A stretch of 48,123 nt of DNA from Clostridiales bacterium. GTDB taxonomy: Bacteria > Bacillota > Clostridia > Lachnospirales > JAISYE01. The translations under genes were made by a program, and so were the position numbers. Location of the stretch: NCBI GenBank assembly GCA_031297485.1, contig JAISYE010000224.1:1-48123 (forward strand), given 5' to 3'. The notes beneath the pieces are model-generated. The model saw nothing but the letters and a program-made list of their open reading frames with translations, ran no database searches and was not told where the DNA came from. Shown piece by piece: positions 7,064 to 29,957 of this stretch (within the stretch, counting starts at the first letter, position 1; each line of letters begins with the position of its first letter).

Positions 7064-7609
7064 GCGGTGGTTTTCTGCGGGTGCGCCTGCGCGGGCGCGC
7101 TGTACGCGCATACCCTGGGCGCGTCTGCTGGGACTGAAATTTCTAATGGCCTGGAAGAATACTTGCGGCGGTTCAGCGGCCCTTTAATCGACAGGCTTGA
7201 CATTTTTCGCGGAAGTCTTATAAAATACATGAAGACCGTTTTGGCCTTGTGGTTTATGGCCTTTGTGCCTTACGGCGGTTTTTTCGTTTTTTTAATAATA
7301 GCGGCGCGCGGAGTGGCTTATGGTTTTACAACCGCCCTTATTGTAGAGTTGTACGGTCCGCCGGGAATTGTCTGCGCCGCGCTGCTGTACGCGCCCCAAT
7401 GCGTGCTGCTGCCTGCCCTGCTCCTGCTGGCGCGCTGGTCGGTAACCTACTGCAGGGGCCGGAACTTCCGTGGCACGGACGGGACCGGAGTCTCCGTACC
7501 TGACACGGGCGCCGTCGCGGCTCTCGCCTTAAGCTGCGCTGCCGCAGTAATAGCCGGGCTGGCTGATTCTTTTGCCGTGCCTGTGTTCATAAGAGGCTTG
7601 CTGAACTGA
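7010..7609 (+). CDS. spoIIM: stage II sporulation protein M
   Basis: Polytopic membrane protein matching the SpoIIM pattern (LWFMAFVPYGGFFVFLIIAARGVAYGFTTA...). Start trimmed to ATG 7010 (MRARV), with GAAAGGGG about 8 nt upstream. Confidence 0.7.
   Translation: MRARVHRIGRRGSLMAVLAVVFCGCACAGALYAHTLGASAGTEISNGLEEYLRRFSGPLIDRLDIFRGSLIKYMKTVLALWFMAFVPYGGFFVFLIIAARGVAYGFTTALIVELYGPPGIVCAALLYAPQCVLLPALLLLARWSVTYCRGRNFRGTDGTGVSVPDTGAVAALALSCAAAVIAGLADSFAVPVFIRGLLN
7455..7472. repeat. in-frame 18-nt palindromic unit (GGGGCCGGAACTTCCGGC family) in spoIIM
   Basis: GGGGCCGGAACTTCCGTG, read as RGRNFRG; a weaker second copy GGGACCGGAGTCTCCG lies at 7481-7496. Confidence 0.8.
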
Positions 7610-7623
7610 AGGGAAATGATATT

Positions 7624-8133
7624 ATGGATTTTACTTATTTGCTTGAAAAGGGATTAAAAAATTTGTCAGGCGCGGGCGCGTTCCTTACCGCCGGGGATGG
7701 GCGGACACAATCCGCTCCCGCGGGCGCCGGCGTAAATACCATGACAATATCCTGGGGCTTTGTGGGCTTTATATGGGCCAAGCCCCACTTTATAACAGTG
7801 GTGCGCCCTCAGCGCTACACACGTACATTACTCGACGCGGGCGACAGCTTTACAATAAGCGTACCTTTCGACGGCACTCTTAAGGAAGAACTGGCCATTT
7901 GCGGAACCCAGTCGGGCAGGGACATAAATAAGGCGGAGATAGTGCGGTTTATTCCCGCCAGGTCTGTGGCCAGCCCGATAGTAGCGGGCTGCGGCCTGTA
8001 CTATGAATGCTTGAAAAAACACGCCCAGCCCATTGACGGCGAACTTCTGCCCAAGGAGATTAAAGGAAATTTTTATAATGAGGATTTTCACATTATGTAT
8101 TGCGGTGAGATAGTCGAATGCTATTCGCTGTAA
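7624..8133 (+). CDS. flavin reductase-like (FMN-binding split-barrel) protein
   Basis: 169 aa; NTMTISWGFVGFIW..., FITVVRPQRYT pattern typical of the flavin reductase-like domain; 14 nt after spoIIM. Confidence 0.65.
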   Translation: MDFTYLLEKGLKNLSGAGAFLTAGDGRTQSAPAGAGVNTMTISWGFVGFIWAKPHFITVVRPQRYTRTLLDAGDSFTISVPFDGTLKEELAICGTQSGRDINKAEIVRFIPARSVASPIVAGCGLYYECLKKHAQPIDGELLPKEIKGNFYNEDFHIMYCGEIVECYSL

Positions 8134-8192: not shown

Positions 8193-9200
8193 TTACGCCG
8201 CTTCTTCCTGCGCCAGTTCCGGATAAACCGCGCTTAACATCTCCCAAAGGGCCTTGACTATATTCTGGTTCGGCCTTGAGCTTGAGTTGGTGTCGATGTA
8301 ATATACCTGGCGGTTTTTAACGGCGGTTACATTCTCCCAGCCGTTGCGGCTTAAAATTTCGCCTGTGGGGTCCTCTATATAGTCCACGCTGGTTAAAATA
8401 ACGTCAGGGTTAGCGCTTATGACGGATTCCTCTGAAACGGATATCCAGCTGTCCTCATCTTCAAAAATATTCCGCGCGCCGATTAGTTCCAGCATTTCAT
8501 TTAAAAACACATTTCTGCCGAAACTGTAAATTTGCGGCGCTGCCGCCACCTCGAACAGCACGCTCTTCTTCTCCGTAACCGTACTGCCCAGTGCGGCCAC
8601 TTCCGACAAGGCGCTGTCTAAATCCGCTGTAAGCTCCGCCGCTCGCTCCGCCGTGCCGGTCACTTCGCCCACAAACTCAATGTCTTCCTTTATACCCGCG
8701 ATACTGTTGGTTGTGGGTATATATACAACGCAGACGCCGGTATCGCTAACCGGCTTGTATGGATCCACGCCGTTCACCAGGCTCATGCCCGTGACAAAGA
8801 GCAGATCCGGCGCAAGCGCTATCAGCCGCTCGGCGTCAGGGGTCATCATGTCAAATTGAGGCAGGTCCTCCGTCAAACCCTCTATACCTGCGGAATAGGT
8901 GTCAATAGCTATAATTTTATCCGCCAGGCCAAGTCCTGCCAAAATTTCCGTTACAGCAGGGGACATGCAAATAATTTTATCTGTCTTTTGCGGTTTGTTA
9001 AATGTGTTGCCCGCCCGGTCAACCATTGGAACCGTAGCTTCCAGGGTGGCGCTGGAACCGGACTGGGTTACGGAGTCCAGCGCGCTGCCGCAGGCCCCGG
9101 TTACTGACATGGTCAGAATTATTATTAAGAACAAATGGGGCCGGAACTTCCGGCTAAAAAATTTTCTTGCCGTTGATGTTTTCCAAATACCGCTCATCAA
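8193..9200 (-). CDS. ABC transporter substrate-binding lipoprotein, BtuF/FhuD-like (cobalamin/siderophore type)
   Basis: 335 aa. Signal peptide with lipobox VTGAC. ICMSPAVTEILAGLGLADKIIAID motif of type-2 periplasmic binding proteins. Lies downstream of riboswitch-controlled cobT. Start overlaps the cobT end by 47 nt, so it is uncertain. Confidence 0.75.
   Translation of the reverse strand: MMSGIWKTSTARKFFSRKFRPHLFLIIILTMSVTGACGSALDSVTQSGSSATLEATVPMVDRAGNTFNKPQKTDKIICMSPAVTEILAGLGLADKIIAIDTYSAGIEGLTEDLPQFDMMTPDAERLIALAPDLLFVTGMSLVNGVDPYKPVSDTGVCVVYIPTTNSIAGIKEDIEFVGEVTGTAERAAELTADLDSALSEVAALGSTVTEKKSVLFEVAAAPQIYSFGRNVFLNEMLELIGARNIFEDEDSWISVSEESVISANPDVILTSVDYIEDPTGEILSRNGWENVTAVKNRQVYYIDTNSSSRPNQNIVKALWEMLSAVYPELAQEEAA
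9137..9154. repeat. in-frame 18-nt unit in the BtuF-like signal-peptide n-region, abutting the cobT stop
   Basis: Exact GGGGCCGGAACTTCCGGC; read on the - strand as RKFRP; its last base is the first base of the cobT stop codon (rc TAG, 9154-9156). Confidence 0.85.
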
Positions 9201-10266
9201 TCATAGCCTCCTTAAAAGTCGCCATATTTTTAATTACCGCGGCCGCCGCGTCCATAAGGGCGAACATAAGCGGGCAGCCGCTGCCTTCCCCAAGCCGCAT
9301 GCCGAGCTTGAGGGGCGCGTCAAACTCAAGTTCCCGCGCCGCGAGAGCGTAGCCGCGCTCGTAAGATTCATGGGACGGGAATATATAGCCCCGGGCATCC
9401 GGACACAGGCGGACCGCGCACAGGGCTGCCACGGCGGAAATAAAGCCGTCAGCCACAACCGGCAGCCTGTTAAGCGCGGCGCCTATATATACCCCGCACA
9501 TAGCCGCGATGTCCAGTCCGCCCACTTTCGATATTACGTCCAGGGGGTCCTCCTGTTTTGGGCGGTGCAACGCAAGGGCGCTGGAAATAACGGATATTTT
9601 GCGGGCGTATTGTCCGTCGGTAAGCCCCGCCCCACGGCCCACGGCTTGTTCAGTCGCGCCGGCGTCCAGACCCAGCAAGGCGCATAAGACCGCGCTGGAG
9701 GTGGTTGTGTTGCCTATGCCCATTTCACCCGCGCCAATGACCTTGAATCCCCTGCGTTTGGCCTCGCCCGCGGACCATATGCCCACGTTGACTGCGGCGG
9801 CCGCTTCGCTTAAGGTCATGGCGGGTTCTTTCGCGATGTTGCCTGTGGATTTACGGATTTTTTTGTTAATGATGCCAGGGTTCTCAATATCCGCGTCAAT
9901 GCCCACGTCGACCACCATCAGCTCCGCGCCGAATTGCCGGGCCAGCACAGCCGCGCCGGTTACACCCCGCGTAAAGTTGAGGGTCTGCGACGCCGTAACT
10001 TCCTTTGGCGCGGAAGACACGCCTTCGGCCACAACGCCGTTATCCGCAGCCATAATAATTAACAGCCGCTTGTCCGGCTCGTAGAACAGCTCACCGGTTA
10101 TGGCGGCAAGCTGGGCGGCTATGTCCTCCAGGCCGCCCAGACTGCCCGGCGGCTTGACCAGGGAATCCAAACGCGCCCGTGCCCGCAGGCGCATGGATTC
10201 GTCCGGCGGCGCCGGCGGTGAAAATTGCAGGGGCGAACTGGGTTCGCCCGTACCTTGTTTTAACAT
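9154..10266 (-). CDS. cobT: nicotinate-nucleotide--dimethylbenzimidazole phosphoribosyltransferase
   Basis: CobT motifs (GEMGIGNTTTSSAV, GGLDIAAM); start trimmed to ATG 10266 (MLKQG) with AAAGGAG upstream; ORF-track GTG 10284 lies inside that RBS. Confidence 0.9.
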   Translation of the reverse strand: MLKQGTGEPSSPLQFSPPAPPDESMRLRARARLDSLVKPPGSLGGLEDIAAQLAAITGELFYEPDKRLLIIMAADNGVVAEGVSSAPKEVTASQTLNFTRGVTGAAVLARQFGAELMVVDVGIDADIENPGIINKKIRKSTGNIAKEPAMTLSEAAAAVNVGIWSAGEAKRRGFKVIGAGEMGIGNTTTSSAVLCALLGLDAGATEQAVGRGAGLTDGQYARKISVISSALALHRPKQEDPLDVISKVGGLDIAAMCGVYIGAALNRLPVVADGFISAVAALCAVRLCPDARGYIFPSHESYERGYALAARELEFDAPLKLGMRLGEGSGCPLMFALMDAAAAVIKNMATFKEAMIDERYLENINGKKIF

Positions 10267-10293
10267 ATACAGTTCTCCTTTCACGCTATACTA

Positions 10294-10394
10294 AGGGCTT
10301 ATCCCTGAATAAAGCAGAATGGCTTAAATACTGAATTTGCTAAAATGCAGAAATGGCGCAAAATCAGATTTTTGCCTATTAAGGGATAGGCTCT
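10294..10394 (+). repeat. repeat family 2, full copy (about 100 bp, terminal inverted repeats GGGCTTATCCCT / AGGGATAGGCTC)
   Basis: Near-identical to 11856..11958; lies in the cobT 5' UTR. Confidence 0.8.
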
Positions 10395-10546
10395 AAGGCG
10401 CGAAAAGAAATGCGCTTTTCGCGCCAGTTGTTGGTTGCTCACACACGAAAACACTGAATGATTTTTAGCAGATGTTTTCGTGTGTGAGTATATACTCGCG
10501 AACGTTGAGATTTGCCGCAAGATGCGGGCGAACGCAGTTCGCCCGC
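10394..10546 (+). repeat. repeat family 3 (two-hairpin composite ending in a REP unit), copy 1
   Basis: Hairpin GGCGCGAAAAG/CTTTTCGCGCC and 16-bp-stem hairpin CTCACACACGAAAACA (10436-10451) / TGTTTTCGTGTGTGAG (10471-10486). Confidence 0.8.
10524..10546. repeat. REP-like palindrome
   Basis: GCGGGCGAACGCAGTTCGCCCGC; cobT 5' UTR. Confidence 0.8.
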
Positions 10547-10583: not shown

Positions 10584-10667
10584 TTTTGCGCGCAATTATA
10601 TCGCCCTATTTAACAGAAACGAAAATTACAAACATGCCGAGGCCTCATATCCTGTGAAGCGGAAGTG

Positions 10668-10835
10668 GCAGCTTATAGGCAGGTCTTTCGACTTAGACTT
10701 TAGCGTCTGTTCCGCCTTCCCAGGGAAAACCCAGTGGCATTTTGAAACAGGCTAGTCAACACGGCAGCAGGACTGTTTGGGATTCACCCCCAATTCCCTA
10801 TTATCGTCAGGCACAGGGCACCTGACGCACCGACA
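10668..10835 (-). promoter_or_regulatory. cobalamin (AdoCbl) riboswitch aptamer
   Basis: rc contains AATAGGGAATTGGGGGTGAATCCCAAACAG..CTGCTGCCGTG, the B12 box GCCACTGGG....CCCTGGGAAGGC and AGTCGAAAGACCTGCC, in the canonical order. Confidence 0.85.
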
Positions 10836-10858
10836 AGCTGGATATTTACTTTGACGCC

Positions 10859-11164: not shown

Positions 11165-11706
11165 ATGAATAGTAATAAAAATAATATTGCCGCGAATCTT
11201 CGCCATTTGCGCGGCCGCCAGCGCTTGTCACAGGAGTAAGTCGCGGAGCGTGTCGGCGCCACGCGGCAGGCAGTGGGAAAATGGGGATACGCTTCCCGAC
11301 ATTATCAATTGCGAAGCGTTAGCCGGTTTGTTTGATGTGTCCCTTAACGATCTGGTACGTTATGACCAAGGACAGGAGGGGCTTCCCATCGGCCCAAGGA
11401 ACAAACACATCTTTGGCACGGTGACTATAGGCGAAAGAGGGCAGATTGTGTTACCCAAAAAAGCGCGGGACACACTTAAGTTCCAACCCTGAGATATCCT
11501 TGTGGTTTTAGGACGTGTTTGAAAATTAGATTCCAGCGCGAAATTGCAGCGGTTTTATTCGAAATTTCGCGCTTTGAGGAGTTTTCAAACACGCCTTAGG
11601 GGACACCAGCCCGGCAACCAGAGGAATTGCACTGGTAAGCAGCGAGATTTTCCCGCGTATGACCGGCAAAACTATTGACGGCTTCTTGAATGGTGAAGGA
11701 GGATAA
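11165..11706 (+). pseudogene. XRE-family HTH + SpoVT/AbrB-domain transcriptional regulator, inactivated
   Basis: Reads MNSNKNNIAANLRHLRGRQRLSQE*VAERVGATRQAVGKW, then shifts frame to ENGDTLPDIINCEALAGLFDVSLNDLV...GQIVLPKKARDTLKFQP*DILVVLG, then the MITE, then DTSPATRGIALVSSEIF. Lesions: premature TAA, a frameshift, an in-frame TGA and a MITE insertion. Confidence 0.75.
11511..11596 (-). mobile_element. MITE family 1, copy d, inserted in the XRE/AbrB regulator gene with TA target duplication
   Basis: TA (11509-11510) and TA (11597-11598) flank the element; removing the element plus one TA restores GTG GTT TTA GGG GAC ACC (VVLGDT). Confidence 0.85.
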
Positions 11707-11708
11707 AC

Positions 11709-11855
11709 GTGAGTATATTATCCGTACAGGGTCTAACGAAGCGTTGCCACAGCTTTACATTGCGCGATGTTAGTTTTTCGCTTCCGCAAGGCAGGATTAT
11801 GGGCTTAATTGGCACAAACGGCGCGGGAAAGACTACGACCTTAAAGTCCATGTTG
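11709..11855 (+). pseudogene. ABC transporter ATP-binding protein, N-terminal 49 codons only
   Basis: GTG with GGAGGA RBS; [12 protein letters not shown]...[18 protein letters not shown] (Walker A), then runs into repeat family 2 at 11856; no remainder downstream. Confidence 0.7.
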
Positions 11856-11958
11856 AGGGCTTATCCCTAAATAAAGCGGAATGGCTTAAATACTGGATTT
11901 GTTAAAATGCAGAAATGGCGCAAAATCAGCATTCTTGCCTATTAAGGGATAGGCTCTT
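11856..11958 (+). repeat. repeat family 2, full copy, truncating the ABC ATPase pseudogene
   Basis: Near-identical to 10294..10394. Confidence 0.8.
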
Positions 11959-13322: not shown

Positions 13323-14048
13323 TCATTTACGCTGGCCGCCGGTGTCAAAATCGCGGGGCTTAGACGAGCGCTTGCGCAGGAACTTAATCAGCAGGAAAAG
13401 ACCAACTAACAGCGCAAGGCCGAAGGATATGCCGCTGTGCCGGCTGTAGTAGAAAGTTCCGTAGCCGTCCCGAAAAGCGCGGTTAAGGAAGTATCCGACT
13501 CCATTCAGAGCGTTAAGGCCAATCACGATGCCGATGACAATAATAATGGGAATGGCGTAGCGCTTGATAAAGCCAAGATAATCTTCCACGCTGTCGGGCA
13601 CGTTAATGCCGGCGTTAAGGAGCCTGCGCTTGTTAAATGAATCGAAGATTGCCCCAAAGTAAATAATGGCAATTACAAAGCCTAATATCGGCTCAGAGAA
13701 TGTGGCTGTCAAGAAAGCCGCCGCGAAGAATGCCGAAAGAACAAACAATCCTCGTTTAATAAGCCCCAGATACATATAACTTATTCCCGGCGGGCCGAAT
13801 ACGGAGAATAAGAACAGCAGGCCCCAGGAAAAATGCCGCCGGCCGCCCTCGGTCACCGGAATTTCCGGGCGCCGCGGTCCGGCGGGGCCGTAACTTTCAG
13901 AGGCGCGCATTGCCTCGGCTACGCAATTTTTGCAAACATAGCGGTTGTCAATTTCCAGACTGCACTCGCTGCACAGCCACGCGCCGCACTTGCTGCAGGT
14001 GTTCACGGCGGTTCTGTCGTTGTGGTTAACACAGTACATGTTTAGCAT
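13323..14048 (-). CDS. zinc-ribbon/B-box-like N-terminal domain membrane protein (paralogue A)
   Basis: 241 aa; Cys-rich N-terminus CVNHNDRTAVNTCSKCGAWLCSECSLEIDNRYVCKNC, then 4-5 TM helices (TM2-like GISYMYLGLIKRG); AGGAG RBS. Confidence 0.7.
   Translation of the reverse strand: MLNMYCVNHNDRTAVNTCSKCGAWLCSECSLEIDNRYVCKNCVAEAMRASESYGPAGPRRPEIPVTEGGRRHFSWGLLFLFSVFGPPGISYMYLGLIKRGLFVLSAFFAAAFLTATFSEPILGFVIAIIYFGAIFDSFNKRRLLNAGINVPDSVEDYLGFIKRYAIPIIIVIGIVIGLNALNGVGYFLNRAFRDGYGTFYYSRHSGISFGLALLVGLFLLIKFLRKRSSKPRDFDTGGQRK
13856..13900. repeat. two 18-nt-unit derivatives in Zn-ribbon paralogue A
   Basis: CCGGAATTTCCGG (13856-13868) and GGGGCCGTAACTTTCAG (13884-13900); together encode SYGPAGPRRPEIPV. 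Confidence 0.7.
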
Positions 14049-14515: not shown

Positions 14516-15271
14516 TCAGCGCTGGCCGCCGGCGTCCAAATCGCGGGGCTTAGACGGGCGCTTGCGCAGGAACTTAATCAAGAGACAGAGACCTACCGCC
14601 AGAGCGATGGGCCATATGCAATCCCATACCTGCCAAGCGATGGGCCATATGCCATCCAATACCGGCCAAGCGTCCATGGTGTAGTAAACTTCCGCGCCTT
14701 TGTAAAGTAGGCCGCGCAGGAAGTGTCCGATACCGTCAAGGCCAATCATGACGCCAATGACAACGATAATGGGAACAGCGTAGCGCTTGATAAAGCCGAG
14801 ATAATCCTCCACGCTGTCGGGCACGTCAATACCGGCGTTAAGGAGTCTGCGCTTGTTAAATGAATCGAAAATCGCTCCGAAGTAAATAATGGCAATCACA
14901 AAGCCGAGTACCGGCGAATTGAATGTGGCTGTCAAGAAAGCCGCCGCGAAGAATGCCGAAAGAACAAACAACCCTCGTTTAATAAGCCCCAGATACATAT
15001 AACTTATTCCCGGCGGGCCGAACACGGAGAATAAGAACAGCAGGCCCCAGGAAAAATGCCGGCGGGCGCCCTCGGTCACCGGAACTTCCGGGCGCCGGGG
15101 TCCGGCGGGGCCGTAACTTCCGGAGGCGCGCATTGCCTCGGCTACGCAATTTTTGCAAACTATGCGGTTGTCAATTTCCAGACTGCACTCGCTGCAAAGC
15201 CACGCGCCGCACTTGCTGCAGGTGTTTACGGCGGTTCTGTCGTTGTGGTTAACACAGTACATGTTTAACAT
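14516..15271 (-). CDS. zinc-ribbon/B-box-like N-terminal domain membrane protein (paralogue B)
   Basis: 251 aa; the first ~190 codons are nearly identical to 13323..14048, the C-terminus diverges and carries a 2 x 33-nt tandem repeat. Confidence 0.7.
   Translation of the reverse strand: MLNMYCVNHNDRTAVNTCSKCGAWLCSECSLEIDNRIVCKNCVAEAMRASGSYGPAGPRRPEVPVTEGARRHFSWGLLFLFSVFGPPGISYMYLGLIKRGLFVLSAFFAAAFLTATFNSPVLGFVIAIIYFGAIFDSFNKRRLLNAGIDVPDSVEDYLGFIKRYAVPIIVVIGVMIGLDGIGHFLRGLLYKGAEVYYTMDAWPVLDGIWPIAWQVWDCIWPIALAVGLCLLIKFLRKRPSKPRDLDAGGQR
14604..14669. repeat. 2 x 33-nt in-frame tandem repeat inside paralogue B
   Basis: GCGATGGGCCATATGCAATCCCATACCTGCCAA / GCGATGGGCCATATGCCATCCAATACCGGCCAA (encodes the W/P/I-rich segment GIWPIAWQVWDCIWPIA). 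Confidence 0.85.
15079..15123. repeat. two 18-nt-unit derivatives in Zn-ribbon paralogue B
   Basis: CCGGAACTTCCGG (15079-15091) and GGGGCCGTAACTTCCGG (15107-15123); together encode SYGPAGPRRPEVPV. Confidence 0.8.
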
Positions 15272-15626: not shown

Positions 15627-16298
15627 ATGAATTTAAGACAGTATAGGGGAGATATCGGACGGATTGCGCTGGCGGGCGCGGTAGTGTGCGCCTTGGCGGC
15701 CACAGGCTGCTCGGGCGGAACTCACGGACGCGTCAGAAACACAAGAACAGGCGGCGCTTATGACTACAATTACGACCGTTATAATAGATACGGTTATGGT
15801 TACGGGAAGGACAACACCTACGTCTATGACTACGACCGGGGCAGGAACTTCCGTGACGGATACGCGTGGTATCCTGACGGTACGCTCCGCCGCGCCGCGG
15901 ACAGCCTGAGAAACGGTGTGAACAAGGCGGCTGGCAGCGTAAGCCGTGCGGCCATACGCGCGGGCCGTTCGTTCGGGGCCGGAACTTCCGGCGGGGCCGG
16001 AACTTCCGGTAAAAACGCGGCTGACGGCGGAACGTATAAAGCAGAGCTCGGAATTTCCAGGCGCGGTGCGGTACAACGGCGCGGCAGCGCGGCGGCGGAG
16101 AGCGGCCGGACAGACGGCAAGGTCCGGAACTTCCGAGCTTATACGCGCAGAAACGCGCAATCAGACACAAACAGGACAAACAGAACAGTTATAAACAATA
16201 ACAGAGGCACAGACGGATATTATACGGATTACAACATGCCGGGCGGCGCGCCGGTGAATAACGGCGCCGCCGCTTCCGCTCTCCGCGGGGGGCGGTAG
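15627..16298 (+). CDS. secreted lipoprotein, R/G/N/Y-rich low-complexity, unknown function
   Basis: Start trimmed to ATG 15627 (MNLRQYRGDIGRIALAGAVVCALAATGCSGG: signal peptide + lipobox). The ORF-track 5' extension runs through a MITE. Carries 4 copies of the 18-nt unit. Confidence 0.55.
   Translation: MNLRQYRGDIGRIALAGAVVCALAATGCSGGTHGRVRNTRTGGAYDYNYDRYNRYGYGYGKDNTYVYDYDRGRNFRDGYAWYPDGTLRRAADSLRNGVNKAAGSVSRAAIRAGRSFGAGTSGGAGTSGKNAADGGTYKAELGISRRGAVQRRGSAAAESGRTDGKVRNFRAYTRRNAQSDTNRTNRTVINNNRGTDGYYTDYNMPGGAPVNNGAAASALRGGR
15838..15855. repeat. 18-nt unit derivative in the lipoprotein gene
   Basis: GGGGCAGGAACTTCCGTG, read as RGRNFRD. Confidence 0.7.
15974..16009. repeat. 2 x 18-nt tandem units in the lipoprotein gene
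   Basis: GGGGCCGGAACTTCCGGC GGGGCCGGAACTTCCGGT, read as GAGTSGGAGTSG. Confidence 0.9.
16121..16137. repeat. 18-nt unit derivative in the lipoprotein gene
   Basis: GGTCCGGAACTTCCGAG, read as VRNFRA. Confidence 0.7.
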
Positions 16299-16465: not shown

Positions 16466-18058
16466 ATGCCAAAGAAACCAGCGGCAAAAAAAGAGAAGCG
16501 CGCGTCAAGCGAATGCAAGGCGGTAATAGAAATCGGGTCCAACGCCCTGCGCTTAAAAGTGGCTCAGGCGCGGAAGAACAAAATGGAGTATGTGGAATCC
16601 ATAACCTATGACTTGAACCTGGGGCGGGACACTTTCGGAACCGTAACTTCCGGCGCGGCCCTTTCCGGCGACGGCGGGCGCATTCAGTTTGACAACCTTG
16701 AAAAAATCTGCGGCATAATAAAAAATTTTCTGGCGGCAGCGTCAGGGTATGGGTGCGAGGAAATAAAAATAGTAGCCACCACAGCGATTCGCGAAGCGAC
16801 AAATAAGGAGTATATTCTGGACCAGATAAAAATTAAGACCGCGCTGAATGTGGAGGTAATAGACGACGCCCAGGAGAAACTGTACATTTTCAAGTTTATG
16901 GCCAGCCTGCTGAACGACGCGCTGAAAAAATCGACTTTTTTGGTGTACATAGGCTCGGGGAGCATGGGGCTTTCGTACATGACAGAAGGCAGGATACCAT
17001 ACGCGCAGAATATCAGGACGGGTTCGCTGCGCATAAGTGAGATGTTCAATGAGCTGCAGGAATATTCCTCGGAATTCCACTTGGTGGTGGAGGAATATCT
17101 GAACGGATTTACGGACGGACTGGCGGAGAACATCCCCGGCCCGGTAAAGGACTTTGTGGCCTCTGGTCAGGAAATATCCATGATAGCGGAACTGTGCGGC
17201 GCGCGGGACGACGGGTTGTTTTTATACATTCCCAGGGAGAATTTTACGCAGATGTATGAGGAAATAAAGCATAAATCCGTAGATAACATCGCGCTGGACT
17301 ATAGACTTCCCACGGACAAAGCCGAAGTGCTGCTGCCCGCTATGGCAATTTTCAACCGTTTGATGGAAATAACGGGGGCAAACCAGATAATATCGCCGGC
17401 GATTCTGCTGTCTGACGCCTTAATGTATGAGATGCTGTACCCCAAGGCTTTCGCCGAATTAAACAAGGACTTCAGCAAGAGCACGGTGCTCTACGCGCGC
17501 CGGGTGGCAAGCCGTTACGGTACGCCGGAATTCCACTATGCCAAGGTGGAGCGTTACGCCCTTAAGATTTTCGACAAGATGAAGAAAATCCACGGCATGG
17601 GCCAGCATGAGAAACTCCTGCTTTCCACGGCCGCTATTTTGCACGATGTAGGTAAATTTATAAATTTTAAGCATCATTACCGTCATTCTTATAATATAAT
17701 TACAGGACTGGACATATTGGGGCTAAGCAATCTGGACAGGGAAATAGTGGCGTGTATCTGCTATTATCACAGCACGTGCCTGCCCAGCATTCATGACGAG
17801 CATTACAAAAGCCTCTCCGCGCAGGACCGCGTGCTGGTGTCCAAACTGACCGCCATTCTGCGCGCCGCCGACGCCTTGGTGCGCGGCAGCGGTGAAAAAT
17901 TTGACAGCATTGACGTGACTGTAAGCGACGAACTGGTTGTAACAATTTCGACTGAGCAGAATATTGATTTGGAGCAATGGGCTTTTAACAAAAAGAGCGA
18001 TCTGTTTGAGGAAGTGTTTGGCCTGAAAGCCCGGCTGAGAAACAAAAGGCCGCTGTAA
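16466..18058 (+). CDS. ppx: exopolyphosphatase (Ppx/GppA family with C-terminal HD domain)
   Basis: AVIEIGSNALRLKV, ATTAIREA, HDVGKFI motifs; start placed at ATG 16466 (9 nt after AAGGAG); ATG 16457 and ORF-track start 16427 are alternatives. Confidence 0.85.
   Translation: MPKKPAAKKEKRASSECKAVIEIGSNALRLKVAQARKNKMEYVESITYDLNLGRDTFGTVTSGAALSGDGGRIQFDNLEKICGIIKNFLAAASGYGCEEIKIVATTAIREATNKEYILDQIKIKTALNVEVIDDAQEKLYIFKFMASLLNDALKKSTFLVYIGSGSMGLSYMTEGRIPYAQNIRTGSLRISEMFNELQEYSSEFHLVVEEYLNGFTDGLAENIPGPVKDFVASGQEISMIAELCGARDDGLFLYIPRENFTQMYEEIKHKSVDNIALDYRLPTDKAEVLLPAMAIFNRLMEITGANQIISPAILLSDALMYEMLYPKAFAELNKDFSKSTVLYARRVASRYGTPEFHYAKVERYALKIFDKMKKIHGMGQHEKLLLSTAAILHDVGKFINFKHHYRHSYNIITGLDILGLSNLDREIVACICYYHSTCLPSIHDEHYKSLSAQDRVLVSKLTAILRAADALVRGSGEKFDSIDVTVSDELVVTISTEQNIDLEQWAFNKKSDLFEEVFGLKARLRNKRPL
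16636..16670. repeat. 18-nt unit derivatives in ppx
   Basis: CGGAACCGTAACTTCCGGCGCGGCCCTTTCCGGCG, read as GTVTSGAALSG. Confidence 0.6.
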
Positions 18059-21589: not shown

Positions 21590-21612
21590 GCGGGCGAGCA
21601 CAGTTCGCCCGC
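21590..21612. repeat. REP-like palindrome
   Basis: GCGGGCGAGCACAGTTCGCCCGC. Confidence 0.75.
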
Positions 21613-21672
21613 TTTCAGCGTGTTTCCAGTATAGCGCCAGCCGCGGTGAATAACAATAGACCGCCACACGCT
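21590..21672 (+). repeat. repeat family 3, right-hand part only
   Basis: REP + TTTCAGCGTGTTTCCAGTATAGCGCCAGCCGCGGTGAATAACAATAG, matching 30105-30185. Confidence 0.7.
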
Positions 21673-21755: not shown

Positions 21756-22799
21756 TCAGGGACCGGAGCTTCCGCTCTTTGTCTTACGTTTGCGTGACGT
21801 GATTACGCTCTGCAGTACGATAAAAAAGCACAGAAGGGCGGATAACGCAATCCTGACCCACCAGCTGGACAGACTTCCCTGGGTGGTAATCAAGCTGGAA
21901 ATAGTACCCTTGATCAGCACGCCGAATAAGGTGCCAATCGGATTGCCTACGCCTCCTGAAAGGAGTGTGCCGCCGATAACAGAGGAGGAAACGGCGTCCA
22001 TTTCAAGGCCCCGCGCCTGCTCCACAAATCCGGCGGCGCTGTTCAGGCAAAACAGAAACCCGCCAAGACCGGCTAAAAATCCGCTGAGCACATAAGCGAA
22101 AAAGCGGGTGCGCCGCACATTCAGACCCATCATTAGGGCGCTTTGCTGGTTGCCGCCAATGGCGTATAACGCGCGGCCGAATTTCGTGCGTTTTAAAAGA
22201 ATAATCACCAATATCAAGATCACCAACGCGGCAATAACGGTGGGATAAATGTAAGCGTGCTGGAAAACCCCTTTTTTATTGGTAGTGCCGAAAGGTAAAT
22301 CGATCTTGTAATTAGCCCAGGCCAAAAACACTTCGTTCTTAATGGAAATCATCTCTTTGCTGATAACGGCAGTCATGCCGCGGCCAAAAAACATCCCGGC
22401 CAAAGTTACGATAAAGGGCTGTATTCCAAGGTACGAAACCAGGAAGCCCTGCGCCAGCCCGAAAGCCAGCCCGATGCCCAAGGAAACGGAAACAGCCGCG
22501 TAAACACTGGCGCCCTGTTTTTCCATCATATAGGCCGCAACCATACACACCAACGCAGTCACCGAACCCACGGAGATATCAATGCCGCCGGTAATCATTA
22601 CCACAGTCAGCCCGCAAGAAATCACGATCAGGCTTGCGTTTGTGATGAATAGATTCAAGAACATCTGCGGCTTCGCAAAGCCCTGATTCGTGAATATTAT
22701 CATGCCGGCCGCATACATCGCCGCAAACAGCCCGATTGTCACCAGCAGCAGAAAAGTGGTGTCGCTTAAATTCTTTCTTTGCAATGGTATGATTCTCAT
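21756..22799 (-). CDS. yjfF: sugar ABC transporter permease (YjfF type)
   Basis: 347 aa polytopic; GGIDISVGS motif; last gene of the ytfQRT-yjfF-like operon; 4-nt overlap with ytfT. Confidence 0.85.
   Translation of the reverse strand: MRIIPLQRKNLSDTTFLLLVTIGLFAAMYAAGMIIFTNQGFAKPQMFLNLFITNASLIVISCGLTVVMITGGIDISVGSVTALVCMVAAYMMEKQGASVYAAVSVSLGIGLAFGLAQGFLVSYLGIQPFIVTLAGMFFGRGMTAVISKEMISIKNEVFLAWANYKIDLPFGTTNKKGVFQHAYIYPTVIAALVILILVIILLKRTKFGRALYAIGGNQQSALMMGLNVRRTRFFAYVLSGFLAGLGGFLFCLNSAAGFVEQARGLEMDAVSSSVIGGTLLSGGVGNPIGTLFGVLIKGTISSLITTQGSLSSWWVRIALSALLCFFIVLQSVITSRKRKTKSGSSGP
21759..21776. repeat. 18-nt unit forming exactly the last six codons of yjfF
   Basis: GGGACCGGAGCTTCCGCT; rc reads SGSSGP followed directly by the TGA stop. 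Confidence 0.8.
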
Positions 22800-23905
22800 G
22801 TTTGAGTCTCCTTTTTGGAGAAAACAATACTTCCTGTGATGTTTTTTATCCGCGGGTTACGGATAAATCCCCGGAATACATCACTTTGAAGGGTGATGAT
22901 GGCAATTACAGCGGCCGCTTTGTAAACCGGCAGCTGGTCAGCGGAAATATTCATTGCGTACAGCGTGGTGCTGAGCGACTGGATGGTGAAAGCCCCTATG
23001 ACGGAGCCTGCCAGGCTGAACCTGCCGCCGCCCAATATATTGCCGCCAAGGGCCACCGCCAGTATTGCGTCCATTTCCAAGTACAGCCCGATGTTATTAG
23101 CGTCAGCGGAATATATTCTGCTGGACGCCACAAAACCAGCCAATCCAGCCAGGAACCCGCAAATAACATAGGTGACAAAGACGACGCGTGCGGAGCCCAG
23201 ACCTACCAGCCGCGCCGCGCTGCTGTTGACGCCCGCCGCTTCGACGAACAGGCGCAGGGCGGTGAATCTGAGTAAAAGCGCCACAATGACTGCCGTTCCT
23301 ATGGCAAAAAAAATAGGCACGGGTATGGGAACGCCTGGTATATACCCGCCCGCTGTTTTGTAAGCGCTGACACGGATATAGGTGATCTGCCCCGCGGTAA
23401 TAAGCTGCGCGACGCCGCGGCCGGCGGTAAAGAGAATTAAAGTGGCGACCATAGGCTGAATACGTAGCCGCGCAACCAAAAATCCGTTAAAAGCCCCGCA
23501 AAGCGCCGAAGCCGCCAGCGACGCGCTCACTGCCAGAACAAGCGGGTTTTGAAAAGAAGTGACAGAAACTTCGCCGCCGGAAAGGATTTGGCAGCAGACG
23601 GCGGCGGAAACGGCCATTACCGCGCCCACGCTGATGTCTTGCCCTCCGGAGGCGGCGGTTGCCAAGGTCATGCCGATAGCTAAAATAACCAGTTCGGACG
23701 CGCGGTTTACCACGTCAACGATATAACCATACAGCACTCCGTTGTTAATTGAGACCGCGAAAAAATTTGGGGTTTTAGCCACGTTTGCCAGCAGCACCAG
23801 GGCCAGGCACAGCAGCGGGAAAAACAGGCGGTGCCGTAAAACTTTTTGTATGCCGGAGGCTCCGGCCCTTGCGGACAGATCCTTGTCCGGATTTTGTTTA
23901 GACAT
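22796..23905 (-). CDS. ytfT: sugar ABC transporter permease (YtfT type)
   Basis: 369 aa polytopic; GGQDISVGA motif; 8-nt overlap with ytfR. Confidence 0.85.
   Translation of the reverse strand: MSKQNPDKDLSARAGASGIQKVLRHRLFFPLLCLALVLLANVAKTPNFFAVSINNGVLYGYIVDVVNRASELVILAIGMTLATAASGGQDISVGAVMAVSAAVCCQILSGGEVSVTSFQNPLVLAVSASLAASALCGAFNGFLVARLRIQPMVATLILFTAGRGVAQLITAGQITYIRVSAYKTAGGYIPGVPIPVPIFFAIGTAVIVALLLRFTALRLFVEAAGVNSSAARLVGLGSARVVFVTYVICGFLAGLAGFVASSRIYSADANNIGLYLEMDAILAVALGGNILGGGRFSLAGSVIGAFTIQSLSTTLYAMNISADQLPVYKAAAVIAIITLQSDVFRGFIRNPRIKNITGSIVFSKKETQT
23852..23868. repeat. 18-nt unit derivative in the ytfT N-terminal tail
   Basis: GCCGGAGGCTCCGGCCC; rc reads AGASG. Confidence 0.7.
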
Positions 23906-25529
23906 TCTGTTTTTCGCCTCCCGCGATAGTGCGCATGATAATCTCCTGTTTCAAATCGCCGCCGCTTAATTCCCCCACTTTTTGGCGGTCACGCAGGACG
24001 GCCATGCGTGTACAGGTGCGCAGCATCTCCTCTATCTCGGAGGAGATAAAAGCCACCCCCACCCCGTCATGAGCGAGTTTCAGCACCAGTTTCTGTATCT
24101 CGGTTTTCGTGCCGATATCTATGCCGCGGGTCGGTTCGTCCAAGATGAGGTATTCGGGATTGGTGAGCAGCCAGCGCCCAATGATAACCTTTTGCTGATT
24201 GCCTCCCGAAAGGCTCTTGACAGGGGTTTCGCGGCCCGCGGTTTTAATTTGCAAAAGTGCGATATACTTGTCCGCGAAATTCTCCGACTCTTTGCGGGAT
24301 ATAGGCTTCCAGACGCCGCGTTTCGCTTGCAGGGCTATAATGATGTTCTCCCGGACCGACAGCTCCGCGATAATGCCGTCCCGTTTCCGGTCCTCCGGAA
24401 GATAGGCCATACCCTTTTTCATCGCGTCCAGCGGGCTGCTGAACCTTACTTCCGTCCCGCGGACTTTCAGAGTGCCGCTGTCCGGCTTGTCGGCGCTGTA
24501 TAATGCACGGGCCAACTCGCTGCGCCCCGAACCGAGAAGTCCTGTAAAGCCCACCACCTCGCCCTTGTAAACGCGCAAATCAAAAGGTTTTATATTACCT
24601 GTGCATCCAAGGCCGGCAGCTTCAATAAACGGCGTTTCACTTTCAAAATCAGGGCTGGATTTAGCGCTGGTTTTGATTTCCGCCAAATCATCAAATTCCT
24701 TACCCATCATTTTTGCCACAAGCTGTACGCGCGGCAGGTCCTTGACCTCATATTCGCCCGCCAGTTCGCCATTGCGCAGCACTGTGATGCGGTCGCAAAC
24801 CTCGTACACCTGTTCAAGAAAATGCGTGACAAATATGATGCCCACATTCTGTTCTTTCAATTGCCGCATAAGCTGGAAAAGTTTTGTCACTTCGTCGTCG
24901 TCAAGGGATGAAGTGGGTTCATCCAGAATCAGCGCCTTGCACTTCATATCCACCGCCCGGGCGATGGCGATCATCTGCTGAACGGCAATAGAGCAGTCGT
25001 CCAATTGCTGCGTGGAAACAGAAGGTATTTTAAGCCTCTTTAAAAGCATGTCCGCCTTTTTATTGATGGTTTTCCAGTCAATTAACCCGAATTTGCGGGG
25101 TTCCCGCCCGATAAATAAATTTTCGGCTACGGTCAGATTGGGACACAGGCTGATCTCCTGGTATACCGTGCTGATTCCGTTTGCCTGCGCTTCTTGCGGG
25201 GAATGGTTTACCACTGGGACCAGAACTTCCGCCAGCCCGTCGCGGCCGGGGCCGGAGCTTCCGGCGGGGCCGGAGCTTCCGGCGGGGCCGGAACTTCCGG
25301 CGGGGCCGGAGCTTCCGGATTGGATATGAATTTCTCCCGCGTCCATAATATAGACCCCTGTAAGCACTTTAATCAGCGTGGATTTCCCCGCGCCGTTTTC
25401 TCCCATAAGAGCGTGGATTTCCCCCTTGCGCAGTGTGAAATCCACATTGCGCAGCGCCTGTACACCAGGGAAAGATTTATATATGCCTTGCATCCGCAGG
25501 ACAATATTATCTTGCATCTCCTTGTTCAC
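23898..25529 (-). CDS. ytfR: sugar ABC transporter ATP-binding protein, two ABC domains (YtfR type), with repeat-encoded insertion
   Basis: Walker A GENGAGKST, LSGGNQQK signature and a second domain. Start uncertain: GTG 25529 lacks an RBS, and ATG 25517 has AAGGAG immediately adjacent. Confidence 0.85.
   Translation of the reverse strand: MNKEMQDNIVLRMQGIYKSFPGVQALRNVDFTLRKGEIHALMGENGAGKSTLIKVLTGVYIMDAGEIHIQSGSSGPAGSSGPAGSSGPAGSSGPGRDGLAEVLVPVVNHSPQEAQANGISTVYQEISLCPNLTVAENLFIGREPRKFGLIDWKTINKKADMLLKRLKIPSVSTQQLDDCSIAVQQMIAIARAVDMKCKALILDEPTSSLDDDEVTKLFQLMRQLKEQNVGIIFVTHFLEQVYEVCDRITVLRNGELAGEYEVKDLPRVQLVAKMMGKEFDDLAEIKTSAKSSPDFESETPFIEAAGLGCTGNIKPFDLRVYKGEVVGFTGLLGSGRSELARALYSADKPDSGTLKVRGTEVRFSSPLDAMKKGMAYLPEDRKRDGIIAELSVRENIIIALQAKRGVWKPISRKESENFADKYIALLQIKTAGRETPVKSLSGGNQQKVIIGRWLLTNPEYLILDEPTRGIDIGTKTEIQKLVLKLAHDGVGVAFISSEIEEMLRTCTRMAVLRDRQKVGELSGGDLKQEIIMRTIAGGEKQNV
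25216..25233. repeat. degenerate 18-nt unit in ytfR
   Basis: GGGACCAGAACTTCCGCC; rc reads AEVLVP. Confidence 0.6.
25248..25319. repeat. 4 x 18-nt perfect-register tandem array in ytfR
   Basis: Units at 25248, 25266, 25284 and 25302 (GGGGCCGGAGCTTCCGGC x2, GGGGCCGGAACTTCCGGC, GGGGCCGGAGCTTCCGGA); rc reads SGSSGPAGSSGPAGSSGPAGSSGP. Confidence 0.95.
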
Positions 25530-26844: not shown

Positions 26845-28320
26845 TTACGGACTCAGTTGAATTTTTTTGGGAATCCGCACGGTAACAGTGGTCCCTTCCC
26901 CTGGGACACTTTCGAAGGACAAGCCGTAGCTTTCCCCGCAGTACAGTTTAATCCGCTTGTGAACATTTATCAGCCCAAGGCCGCGGAAGCCCCGGCCCCC
27001 GGCGCGGCGGCCCTTGTACAAACCGGCGCGCAGAGTCTCCAGCTGTTCTTCCGACATGCCTATGCCGTTATCCCGGACAGTAAGCGCAATCGCGTCCGTT
27101 TCCTCATACCCTTGTATGACGATCCGCCCCATCGCGCGTTTGTTCTTGGTGCCGTGGTATATTGCGTTCTCCACCAGCGGCTGAAGTGTCAGTTTAGGGA
27201 TCGTATAACGGAGCAGCGTGTCCGGTATATCTATGCTGTATTCCAGAATGTCGCTGTAACGGATATTCTGTATTTCCAAATAGCTTTTCACATGATTCCT
27301 TTCCGCTTCCAGCGTGACGACATCATGACCGCTGCTCAGAGAGTTCCGGAAAAACACGGAAAGGCTCGACACCATTTTTGTGACCTCGGAATTTCTGTGG
27401 GCTTCCGCCAGCCAGATAATTGAATCCAGCGTATTATAGAGGAAATGCGGATTAATCTGCGCCTGTAACAATTCAAGCTCGGCGCGGCGCAGGCTGGTTT
27501 GGTGCTCCCTCACTTCTTCCAGGAGGCCGTTAATGTGGCGGACCATGTCATTGAAGCCGTCGTCCAGAGTCTTGATCTCTTCGCTTCTTGTCTCAATAGG
27601 CTCCACGGAAAAATCGCCTCCGCTGGGATCGGAACTTCCGGCAAGTTTCTCTACCTTTCTGGAAAGCTCGCTTATGGGCTGGGTGATGCGGCGGGTAAAG
27701 CGCAGGGAATACACAAGGATACTCACGACTAACAACGCGGACAAAATTACAGTCACGGCGATGGTAGTCAGCACTTTGGCTTTAATCCTGACTTGCAGCC
27801 GGGCAAGTTCTTTTACCTCGTCATACAGGTAATTATGCATGTAAGATTCGATGAGTTTCGTGATCGAGTAAATATCCCTGTCCAATTTCTTTATCCGGTC
27901 GTCGTAATATTCCGTGTTAGCTATATCCGCCATATACTTTTTGAGGTTGCCGCACATGTTAAGCATACTGCTGATACGCCAGCGGTTGTCGCCTTGGGCA
28001 GTGGTCTTTTGCAGGCGGTTCAGCACCTCCACGGCGTGGTCAACCTCGCCCCAGGGCAGTTCGGCTTCGCTTTTCGCGTTTATCACATGATACCACATGG
28101 CAAGGTCAAGGTTATGTTTGAACTCGTTGTTAAATTCCGCCGCTGTATTCGCGTTCTGCAGCGCCACTGTGTATTCCTGATTAAAGGACACCAGCAGAAT
28201 CAGCAGCGAGGCTGTCATAACGAGCAGCGGCAGGCAGACGCTCAGCAGCAGCTGGGAAAGCTGCTTGTTGATGCTTATACGCGTTTTCTTCATATTGCGC
28301 GAAATATCAGCGGACAGCAT
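26845..28320 (-). CDS. sensor histidine kinase (YesM/LytS-like: 2 TM, HAMP, His_kinase, HATPase)
   Basis: 491 aa; QINPHFLYNTLDSI H-box region, N-box ENAIYHG, DNGIGM; GGAAGG RBS 9 nt upstream. Confidence 0.85.
   Translation of the reverse strand: MLSADISRNMKKTRISINKQLSQLLLSVCLPLLVMTASLLILLVSFNQEYTVALQNANTAAEFNNEFKHNLDLAMWYHVINAKSEAELPWGEVDHAVEVLNRLQKTTAQGDNRWRISSMLNMCGNLKKYMADIANTEYYDDRIKKLDRDIYSITKLIESYMHNYLYDEVKELARLQVRIKAKVLTTIAVTVILSALLVVSILVYSLRFTRRITQPISELSRKVEKLAGSSDPSGGDFSVEPIETRSEEIKTLDDGFNDMVRHINGLLEEVREHQTSLRRAELELLQAQINPHFLYNTLDSIIWLAEAHRNSEVTKMVSSLSVFFRNSLSSGHDVVTLEAERNHVKSYLEIQNIRYSDILEYSIDIPDTLLRYTIPKLTLQPLVENAIYHGTKNKRAMGRIVIQGYEETDAIALTVRDNGIGMSEEQLETLRAGLYKGRRAGGRGFRGLGLINVHKRIKLYCGESYGLSFESVPGEGTTVTVRIPKKIQLSP
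27625..27642. repeat. 18-nt unit derivative in the histidine kinase gene
   Basis: GGGATCGGAACTTCCGGC; rc reads AGSSDP, in the linker after HAMP. Confidence 0.75.
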
Positions 28321-28325
28321 ACGCG

Positions 28326-29957
28326 TCAGCCTTCCTTTTTCCCGCTGCGGTATTCCCTGGGAGAACAGCCGGTTATTTTTTTAAACAAAAAGCTGAAGTA
28401 GTGCGGGTCGTTGTACCCGACTTTAAAGGAAATTTCGCTGCTGCTGTCCGTAGTGCAGCGCAAAAGCTCCCGCGCCTTTTCCATGCGCAGCTCGGTAAGG
28501 CGCTCCACAAAGGTTTTACCTGTTTGCTGGCTGAAAACCGCGCTGAAATACGAAGGCGCCATATTGGCGATCCGGGCGGCGGCATTAAGGTTCATATTTG
28601 GGTTGGAGTAGTTTTCCATCATATACGCAATTACGACGCGCAGCATTTCACGGTAGCGGTTTGTGGCGGCCAGCTCCCGCGCTGACAGCGCGTTGGACAG
28701 AAGCCGTGTTGTGTACTCTTTTACCCCGTTCAGGGAAGCCATGGCTTCTGCCAGTTTCTTCTTCTCGATCTCAGAGTCGCGCGCTGCCATATCCCATTCC
28801 ATTTTTTTCGCGAAGGCGGTTACCGCGAAGTGCATATTCAACACGACATAATGACGGAATAAAATGGATTCCATGGTTTTCGGGCCAAAGCCATCGAAAT
28901 AATCCTGGACAAAACTGTGAATATCCTCCTGCAGGCCGTTAATGAGGAATTTTTCGACCAGACGCGAATCCATCTTATTGGCGTCCATCTCGTCCGGGTT
29001 AAAATCGAGCGGCATTTGCCCGGAAGAAAGGGCAGGCTCCAGCGTCTTCCTGTAGAACAGGGCTTTTCTGGCCGCTTTGTAACACTTGCCCAGGGCGCTG
29101 AGACGTGTTACGGGCTCTCCGGTGATGATCACATGGTAAATTTTATCCGCAAGCGGCAGGCAAATTTGGTTCAGAGTATTGACGCAATCTTCCGTGTACC
29201 GCATGATGTCGCCGTCGTCCGCTTTTATAAGGAAAACAGTTACGCCCATTCCGGCGCTGAACATGATAAAATGCCTGCTGTCTGAAAAAGCGCGGGATAT
29301 TTCATCAGGGACCGTGGCTTCCGGCTGGACGGCGGCTGGTAAATCTGAGGCGTTATCCTGCGCCGGAAGTTCCGGTCCCGGGAGATTTTTTTCTAAAAGA
29401 AACAGGACGATATTGTACTGTTCGGCGGTCACATCAAGCCCCAGTCTTTGGGCGCGCTCTAACAGCGAGGGCACTGCAACGCCGCCTGAAATCAGCATAT
29501 CAAAAAAGTCGCGCCGGGACGACGAAAGATATTTCTGAACCTCGCCGGCAAACTGGATATTGTACTGCGTTTGGGCCTGTTCCTCATCTTTTTTCTTTTT
29601 AACCTCCAGAAGCACATCCACTAGTTGGTCCTTTGCCAAGGGCTTCAGAAGATACTGGCTTACGCCGATACTTATGGCTTCCTGCGCGTAGAGAAAATCA
29701 TCGTAGCCGCTGAGTATGACGACAATAGTACAAGGCAGATTTTTCTTGATGAACCTGCTTAGTTCAAGGCCGTCCATAAACGGCATTTTGATGTCGGTTA
29801 TGACTATATCGGGCTTCTGCTTTTGAATGGCGCTCCAAGCCAATTCCCCGTCCGGCGCTTCTCCCGCGAAGGTAAAACCGTATTCCTCCCAGCTTACCAG
29901 CCGTTTTATCCCTTCACGGACGACAATTTCATCTTCTGCTAAAAATACGCTGTACAT
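28326..29957 (-). CDS. response regulator, CheY receiver + AraC-type HTH (YesN-like)
   Basis: VFLAEDE...DIVITDIKMPFMDG receiver and C-terminal AraC HTH (GYNDPHYFSFLFKK); start trimmed to ATG 29957 (MYSV), 9 nt after AAAGGA. Confidence 0.85.
   Translation of the reverse strand: MYSVFLAEDEIVVREGIKRLVSWEEYGFTFAGEAPDGELAWSAIQKQKPDIVITDIKMPFMDGLELSRFIKKNLPCTIVVILSGYDDFLYAQEAISIGVSQYLLKPLAKDQLVDVLLEVKKKKDEEQAQTQYNIQFAGEVQKYLSSSRRDFFDMLISGGVAVPSLLERAQRLGLDVTAEQYNIVLFLLEKNLPGPELPAQDNASDLPAAVQPEATVPDEISRAFSDSRHFIMFSAGMGVTVFLIKADDGDIMRYTEDCVNTLNQICLPLADKIYHVIITGEPVTRLSALGKCYKAARKALFYRKTLEPALSSGQMPLDFNPDEMDANKMDSRLVEKFLINGLQEDIHSFVQDYFDGFGPKTMESILFRHYVVLNMHFAVTAFAKKMEWDMAARDSEIEKKKLAEAMASLNGVKEYTTRLLSNALSARELAATNRYREMLRVVIAYMMENYSNPNMNLNAAARIANMAPSYFSAVFSQQTGKTFVERLTELRMEKARELLRCTTDSSSEISFKVGYNDPHYFSFLFKKITGCSPREYRSGKKEG
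29362..29379. repeat. 18-nt unit in the response-regulator interdomain region
   Basis: GCCGGAAGTTCCGGTCCC; rc reads GPELPA. Confidence 0.8.

Follow-up and report, generated by a model that had tools for sequence, protein, structure and literature searches.

A stretch of 48,123 nt from a Clostridiales bacterium (GenBank assembly GCA_031297485.1, contig JAISYE010000224.1, positions 1 to 48,123; hereafter the window) contains an 18-nt palindromic unit, GGGGCCGGAACTTCCGGC, that lies within the open reading frames (ORFs) of a number of unrelated genes. The locus raises the question of what is being repeated here, a peptide, a chromosomal signal or a mobile piece of DNA, and how it came to lie inside so many proteins. 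We find that the unit has been copied into many unrelated sites by insertion, often repeatedly into one permissive loop, and that copies have subsequently been gained and lost locally as 18-nt tandem arrays. At a probability of about 0.5, the unit is an ultra-short, non-autonomous palindromic repeat of the repetitive extragenic palindromic (REP) or Rickettsia palindromic element (RPE) type that is mobilised by single-strand-type transposition.

The abundance of the unit is far above chance. Its core, CCGGAANTTCCGG, has seven exact matches in the window (9141, 13856, 15079, 15979, 15997, 25288 and 29363) against 0.03 expected from dinucleotide shuffles, and the full 18-mer has 15 matches at up to three mismatches against 0.07 expected. 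A weight matrix compared with a third-order Markov null returned 22-24 matches with 0.2-0.6 expected, a result that gives the size of the excess only, as these very copies had served to train the matrix. The 11-mer CGGAACTTCCG is the joint commonest of the window. A first-pass annotation, made from the sequence alone, had described this repeat and put its chance expectation at 0.01; the excess is real at the coordinates that it reported, and the shuffles raise its chance estimate to 0.03. In total, approximately 22 copies occupy approximately 13 independent loci in at least 10 unrelated genes, all between 7.4 and 29.4 kb, and neither the 18-mer search nor the weight matrix placed a copy in the 18-kb ribosomal protein cluster of the window. 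One weak match that is not listed in the first-pass annotation, at 26058 in YtfQ, was rejected as a false positive since orthologue alignment identified it as conserved protein sequence and not an insertion.

The host genes encode a BtuF-like binding protein, two tandem zinc-ribbon membrane protein paralogues, Ppx, a YesM-like histidine kinase, an AraC-type response regulator and components of a galactofuranose-type ABC transporter (YtfQ/R/T-YjfF). Most of the labels assigned in the first-pass annotation are upheld by profile matches (Peripla_BP_2, Ppx-GppA, YjfF/YtfT/YtfR/YtfQ, His_kinase and Response_reg with AraC). Two are less secure: the spoIIM label has a TIGR02831 score of 54 bits against a cut-off of 100, and the lipoprotein takes its name solely from a lipobox in an ORF of low complexity. 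All copies of the unit fall within ORFs and none of the approximately 13 loci is intergenic, so the earlier statement that intergenic DNA lacks the unit is true for the window. As a restriction to coding DNA it does not reach significance (p ~0.07) and is suggestive only, because coding DNA already makes up 82% of the 7-30 kb region and the loci number only about 13.

The anatomy of the unit identifies the level at which it is repeated. A GGG triplet precedes a 15-nt palindrome, GCCGGAACTTCCGGC, for a total length of 18 nt, a multiple of three. As a single strand the unit folds into a hairpin (6-bp stem, 3-nt loop; -6.7 kcal/mol, z = -3.2), and among copies the stem is conserved and the loop variable (ACT, GCT, ATT, GCC or GTC). 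All six reading frames are open, as had been claimed, encoding GAGTSG, GPELPA, GRNFRR, AGSSGP, PEVPAP and RKFRPR, and every one of them is read by at least one host ORF (peptides GAGTSG, GPELP, (G)RNFR, AGSSGP, PEVP and RKFRP). With all six frames in use, it is the DNA and not a peptide that defines the repeat. This bears directly on the proposal that selection for flexible Gly/Ser/Pro linkers produced similar DNA by chance or by convergent low-complexity evolution. AGSSGP and GAGTSG are indeed typical linker peptides, and Gly/Ser-rich coding repeats of 27-nt period on two other contigs (L008 and L048, described below) share part of the unit. The proposal is contradicted by the unrelated peptides that the six frames produce (RKFRP, RGRNFR, GPELP and PEVP among them), one of which lies in a signal-peptide n-region, by the use of the same codons in different copies, and by the conservation of the palindrome rather than of a peptide. 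We consider it very improbable.

Comparison with orthologues indicates that the copies lengthen their host proteins. One reference was a syntenic locus (L116; response regulator, histidine kinase, ytfQRT and yjfF, G+C 41%) from which the unit is absent. In YtfR, a tandem x4 array at 25248..25319 (+) encodes SGSSGP AGSSGP AGSSGP AGSSGP between the Walker A motif and the Q-loop. A degenerate unit at 25216..25233 (+; AEVLVP) lies in the same loop in another phase and therefore represents a separate insertion. Together they account for approximately 32-34 residues that are extra relative to the L116 orthologue. The closest available YtfR homologues have about 505 aa and 73-79% identity by alignment (74% by BLAST); the insert is absent from the L116 orthologue, from 30 aligned orthologues and from the top-ranked genuine ~505-aa matches, and it breaks the match to the NCBIfam YtfR model NF041861 in two. 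In an AlphaFold2 model, residues 70-96 have a predicted local distance difference test score (pLDDT) below 50 and no secondary structure and are flanked by two β-strands, and the insert is accordingly modelled as a disordered loop. Three top-scoring YtfR matches of 735-765 aa (P0001-P0003) were considered as expanded arrays and rejected, being internally duplicated or chimeric ABC ATPases in metagenome assemblies. One of the three has an E. coli-like YtfR half, and all three are probably assembly artefacts.

Four further hosts gave the same result. Relative to the L116 orthologues, the histidine kinase has a net gain of six residues at its HAMP region, including the AGSSDP of a two-mismatch copy (27625..27642, +); YjfF has 5-6 additional C-terminal residues, (S)GSSGP, from a four-mismatch copy immediately 5' of the stop codon (21759..21776, +); and the N-terminus of YtfT is about 12 residues longer, with ARAGASG encoded by an inverse copy, AGGGCCGGAGCCTCCGGC, that is a perfect 15-nt palindrome (23852..23869, -). 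In Ppx, a three-mismatch unit with an adjoining 15-nt partial unit (16637..16669, +; GTVTSGAALSG) corresponds to an 11-residue segment, TVTSGAALSGD, that is missing from 14 orthologues. Judged from these alignments, the segments in YtfR, the histidine kinase, YjfF, YtfT and Ppx are lineage-specific in-frame insertions in termini and loops, in agreement with what the first-pass annotation had suspected. For two other hosts alignment is less informative. The two response-regulator units, a degenerate copy at 29308..29325 (+; PEATVP) and a one-mismatch inverse copy at 29362..29379 (-; PGPELPA), lie in an interdomain linker that cannot be aligned with the L116 orthologue, and the linker of the zinc-ribbon proteins is hypervariable in all homologues.

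These insertions also bear on a second explanation, raised in outline in the earlier annotation, in which the palindrome serves the chromosome as a signal and coding loops tolerate it. Such a signal could act in DNA uptake, in polar recombination or segregation, or as a site for a dimeric protein (parS-, NBS- or matS-like). The DNA uptake sequence (DUS) of Neisseria and the uptake signal sequence (USS) of Pasteurellaceae occur about once per kb, many of them in tolerant coding regions, and arise by point substitution. The unit is likewise a short, dense motif in tolerant parts of proteins and its spacing of about one per 1-2 kb resembles the DUS/USS density; its strand polarity relative to replication (see below) recalls Chi and KOPS; and in two copies (23852 and 7481) symmetric near-centre changes have preserved the dyad symmetry. 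The known signals of these kinds arise by substitution, whereas here the copies add residues in all five genes that could be compared, as insertions of 5-34 aa and as tandem arrays. Arrays of four and copies crowded into a single loop are unexpected for spaced signals. The 18-kb ribosomal protein cluster and intergenic DNA, the least costly places to keep a signal, contain no copy, and the pattern is not maintained in the nearest relatives. A signal function is therefore disfavoured, and we regard it as improbable.

The other copies show how often a single site has been used. In the SpoIIM-like ORF, a two-mismatch copy (7455..7472, +; RGRNFRG) occupies the loop preceding the last transmembrane helix, and the TIGR02831 match stops at residue 134, which is the start of the unit; 8 nt past it, in another phase, is a degenerate copy with six mismatches, GGGACCGGAGTCTCCGTA (7481..7498, +), whose dyad is preserved by symmetric A>G and T>C changes. 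The BtuF-like lipoprotein has an exact unit in its signal-peptide n-region (9137..9154, +; SRKFRPH), adjoining the cobT stop codon, and a doubtful degenerate copy, GGAACCGTAGCTTCCAGG, at 9028..9045 (+; LEATVP). The cytoplasmic linker of the first zinc-ribbon paralogue contains a composite (13852..13901, +) of a unit with core CCGGAATTTCCGG, a 14-nt spacer and GGGGCCGTAACTTTCAGA, translated as SYGPAGPRRPEIPV, and the same composite in the second paralogue (15075..15124, +) was inherited through a 1223-nt tandem duplication. The low-complexity lipoprotein ORF holds a three-mismatch copy (15838..15855, +; RGRNFRD), a tandem x2 copy GAGTSGGAGTSG (15975..16010, +) and a four-mismatch copy (16120..16137, +; KVRNFRA). 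A possible degenerate copy in a loop of the histidine kinase ATPase domain (26982..26999, -; GGRGFR) is doubtful. YtfR, the SpoIIM-like ORF and the response regulator each have a loop or linker with at least two units in differing phases, which means that permissive sites were hit repeatedly. Tandem Repeats Finder delimits the 18-nt arrays as x2 at 15974-16009 and x4 at 25247-25318, so that the tandem copy number in the window is 1, 2 or 4 and the variation noticed in the first-pass annotation is confirmed.

Both zinc-ribbon paralogues possess the unit pair, and the units are therefore older than the duplication that produced the two genes. The genes themselves (13323-14048 and 14516-15271) form a tandem 1223-nt duplication and encode B-box/zinc-ribbon membrane proteins that are 91% identical; an entry of the representative protein library (P0243) matches the product of 14516-15133 (-) at 100% identity. 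A second duplication, of 59 nt and perfect (6636-6694 / 7005-7063, direct), includes the ribosome-binding site and first 18 codons of the SpoIIM-like gene. [quoted passage not shown]

The orientation of the copies provides insight into how the unit may have spread. At 11 of the approximately 13 independent loci the GGG-tagged strand is the + strand, whatever the strand of the host gene (binomial p = 0.022), and GC skew and the direction of the ribosomal protein operon indicate that the + strand is the leading-strand sequence. A short 5' tag followed by a hairpin, clustering of copies and strand polarity are traits of the REP elements associated with REP-associated tyrosine transposases (RAYTs) and of the IS200/IS605 family, and for this reason we take mobilisation of this type to be the likeliest explanation. 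Insertion of IS200/IS605 elements reportedly targets the lagging-strand template and results in a strand-specific orientation relative to replication. Under this proposal, a trans-acting enzyme resembling HUH/Y1 transposases (RAYT or IS200/IS605-type) would act at the replication fork, recognising the hairpin in single-stranded form and dispersing it, and the location of the G-rich tag and hairpin on the leading strand regardless of host gene direction would follow from this. The evidence supports an origin of the copies by insertion and not by substitution, with subsequent expansion into tandem arrays by slippage. Copies survive within genes because a length divisible by three and the absence of stops in six frames add only about six small or charged residues; the sites that tolerate them are surface loops, linkers, signal-peptide n-regions and termini, and where sequence is under constraint, as in the ribosomal protein operon, selection would remove copies.

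The unit was also looked for outside the window. As a sample of relatives, we used 1.11 Mb of metagenomic DNA around the 80 closest PPK genes (52-56% identity), in which neither the 18-mer at up to three mismatches nor the core had a match; the hairpin pattern GCCGGA-NNN-TCCGGC is approximately 29-fold denser in the window than in these loci. A tandem dimer of the unit had no match in the metagenome collection, and a protein query built from the six-frame peptides gave no significant match, probably on account of low-complexity filtering. The nine matches in viral contigs were all single and chance-like, and there is thus no link to phages. A genome-collection scan for GGGGCCGGARCTTCCGGC gave at least 115 matches; among those listed, nearly all were either terminator hairpins (GGGGCCGGAAGTTCCGGCCCC followed by a T-run) or single chance matches in high-G+C taxa, and only one (L003), and possibly a second (L008), was informative. 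The first of these is in recO of a second Bacillota lineage with G+C of 60-64%, where a contig of a metagenome-assembled genome (L003/L212, 5984-6781) has two forward units and one inverted unit in the zinc-finger loop. Across this lineage the loop contains 0-3 units: RecO proteins 75-85% identical to that of L003/L212 have 247, 253, 259 or 265 aa, corresponding to 0, 1, 2 or 3 six-residue units at a single site, and the DNA of L210 (5864-6625) and L208 (10001-10780) contains one and two units, respectively. Length differences in the 7TMR-HDED proteins of the RecO loci were also considered and are due to an unrelated disordered N-terminus, not to units. In the second contig, L008, an array at 2620-2730 in a TelA-like C-terminus, and likewise one at 3727-3800 in an Eisenbergiella contig (L048), is Gly/Ser-rich, coding and of 27-nt period, composed of the 18-mer and a 9-nt half-unit (ACGTCCGGC). 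These arrays share part of the unit and their relation to it is ambiguous.

Several results weigh against transposition as the mode of spread. Protein profile searches found no transposase or RAYT gene in the 48-kb window. No target-site duplication, flanking direct repeat or conserved target was found at the copies, and the GTAG or CGTC tag of known REP families is absent from the consensus GGGGCCGGAACTTCCGGC and its flanks. An element that inserts at random would be expected to leave some intergenic copies and the window has none (p ~0.07), and the orientation bias is based on 13 loci only. The 16-20 kb flanks of the RecO loci contain no further copy, so that high unit density belongs to the genome represented by the window but does not extend to all carriers; among the RecO loci the unit behaves as a local minisatellite and not as a dispersed element.

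Spread without an enzyme fits the RecO lineage best. In this explanation slippage makes the arrays, nearby copies on the same strand seed new ones through template switching or gene conversion of short patches, and the unit would be a self-propagating coding minisatellite. The variation of 0-3 copies at a single site with none nearby agrees with this, as do the tandem arrays of the window, the lack of a target duplication and the sharing of variants between neighbours, such as A10>G in three adjacent ytf genes or a CGTG tail with a similar 5' flank at both 7455 and 15838. Template switching, however, requires homology in the flanks, which the 13 unrelated sites do not show; insertions occurred in all three phases and sometimes in inverse orientation, and the unit recurs in genomes of 51% and 64% G+C, in different genes. 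We judge spread of this kind to be rather unlikely. Considered as a coding minisatellite or variable-number tandem repeat, the unit has the expected head-to-tail x2 and x4 arrays and the 0-3 units among related species in RecO, but differs in its presence at approximately 13 independent loci in at least 10 unrelated genes instead of one or a few homologous loci.

The unit can be compared with several systems already described. The GTAG- and CGTC-tagged REP superfamilies have stems of 5-13 bp, loops of at least 2 nt and a short tail, and are found singly, in pairs or clustered (Di Nocera, De Gregorio & Rocco 2013, PMC3733652). Some lie wholly inside ORFs and in frame, adding residues to the termini, linkers or loops of known proteins, and many of the intragenic copies are in replication and repair genes (PMC3733652), to which RecO may be compared. 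These families are mainly extragenic with an intragenic minority, and their hosts are Proteobacteria, Verrucomicrobia and Rickettsia (PMC3733652). The unit resembles them as a short G+C-rich stem-loop (6-bp stem) with approximately 22 copies in 22 kb, and differs in its GGG(G) tag, its shorter length of 18 nt, its Clostridia host and the absence of intergenic loci (0 of ~13, p ~0.07). The first-pass annotation did not recognise it as a described family; a literature search for the sequence found no match, in line with this, whereas the kind of element, an REP inserted in frame within genes, has been described (PMC3733652). The unit works like an intragenic REP, but one that is shorter, has a length divisible by three and is so far found only inside genes and in Clostridia.

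REP elements and their doublets (REPINs) are mobilised by RAYT (Y1/HUH) transposases (PMC3116915, PMC2817692). The unit shares with them a hairpin next to a short 5' tag that is conserved, many copies and their clustering; REPs, in contrast, have a length of 20-40 nt and are by definition extragenic, and REPINs are inverted doublets, whereas the arrays of the window are direct and head-to-tail and the only inverted unit within an array is in the L212 RecO. RPEs are the classic in-frame palindromic insertions, found in many unrelated housekeeping genes without inactivation of the protein (PMC10969869). They are about 100-150 bp, are lineage-specific, encode a conserved peptide in one frame and have non-coding copies too (PMC10969869). 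The comparison with a miniature RPE drawn in the first-pass annotation holds as far as the unit is palindromic, lineage-specific and in frame in unrelated ORFs, and fails on size and on the single conserved peptide: the unit is 18 nt, is read in six frames to give six peptides and has no sequence similarity to RPEs. It also lies outside the definition of a MITE (50-500 bp, terminal inverted repeats, target-site duplication), at 18 nt and with no flanking direct repeats. Finally, the small dispersed repeats (SDRs) of heterocyst-forming cyanobacteria are said to be approximately 21-27 nt and to show insertion polymorphism between related genomes; they reportedly occur inside and between genes, are common in intergenic DNA and are nested in one another. 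The unit is likewise very small and within genes. It belongs to another phylum and has another sequence, and SDRs have not been reported as six-frame-open units with a length divisible by three.

A stronger form of the proposal would make this the smallest mobile bacterial element so far, an 18-nt hairpin moved by a fork-associated single-strand transposase with a preference for Clostridia coding DNA, generating six-residue loop and linker insertions and tandem expansions proteome-wide; we offer this as possible but doubtful. Should one locus in about every 1.7 kb be typical of the whole genome, recent hexapeptide insertions from one element would be present in hundreds of proteins, which would constitute a natural experiment on the tolerance of loops to insertion and a source of fast variation in linker length. 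REP/RPE-type elements would then extend to Clostridia and down to 18 nt, constraining models of minimal mobilisable DNA, and the strand polarity would provide a direct handle on replication-coupled single-strand insertion. There is an effect on annotation as well, as the units break up profile matches, alter gene-length statistics and can pass for low-complexity protein repeats.

The intergenic DNA of the source genome is largely made up of other repeats. One is MITE-like, approximately 95 nt with terminal inverted repeats CTAAGGCGTGTTTGAAAA / TTTTCAAACACGYCTTAG, and is present as seven full or partial copies in both orientations (2166-2258, 5204-5229, 6695-6779, 11509-11606, 15440-15553, 21455-21554 and 47654-47756). 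Another is an REP-like hairpin family, GGGCGAAC-NNN-GTTCGCCC, mostly immediately 3' of genes and also between ribosomal protein genes, without a T-run (179, 10231, 10526, 14451, 20897, 21592, 30564, 31661, 32631, 35312 and 38809). On the + strand most of its loops read GCR, a hint of an orientation bias resembling that of the 18-mer. Two of these hairpins are in ORFs, at 35312-35330, where the hairpin apparently contributes to an extension of the L16 ribosomal protein at its C-terminus, and at 10231-10249, at the annotated 5' end of cobT, and this family may occasionally be read through too. Three further intergenic families of 45-100 nt with 87-95% identity are located at 5068-5112, 10277-10367, 11839-11929 and 48039-48083; at 10393-10492 and 29998-30097; and at 21603-21671 and 30118-30186. 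The presence of extragenic REP-like hairpins and MITE-like elements suggests an active repeat-mobilising machinery. Rfam matches put the organism in Clostridia and identify two further elements in the window, a cobalamin riboswitch at 10661-10849 (-), upstream of the cobT/btuF-like operon, and an S10-Clostridia ribosomal leader at 30454-30535 (+).

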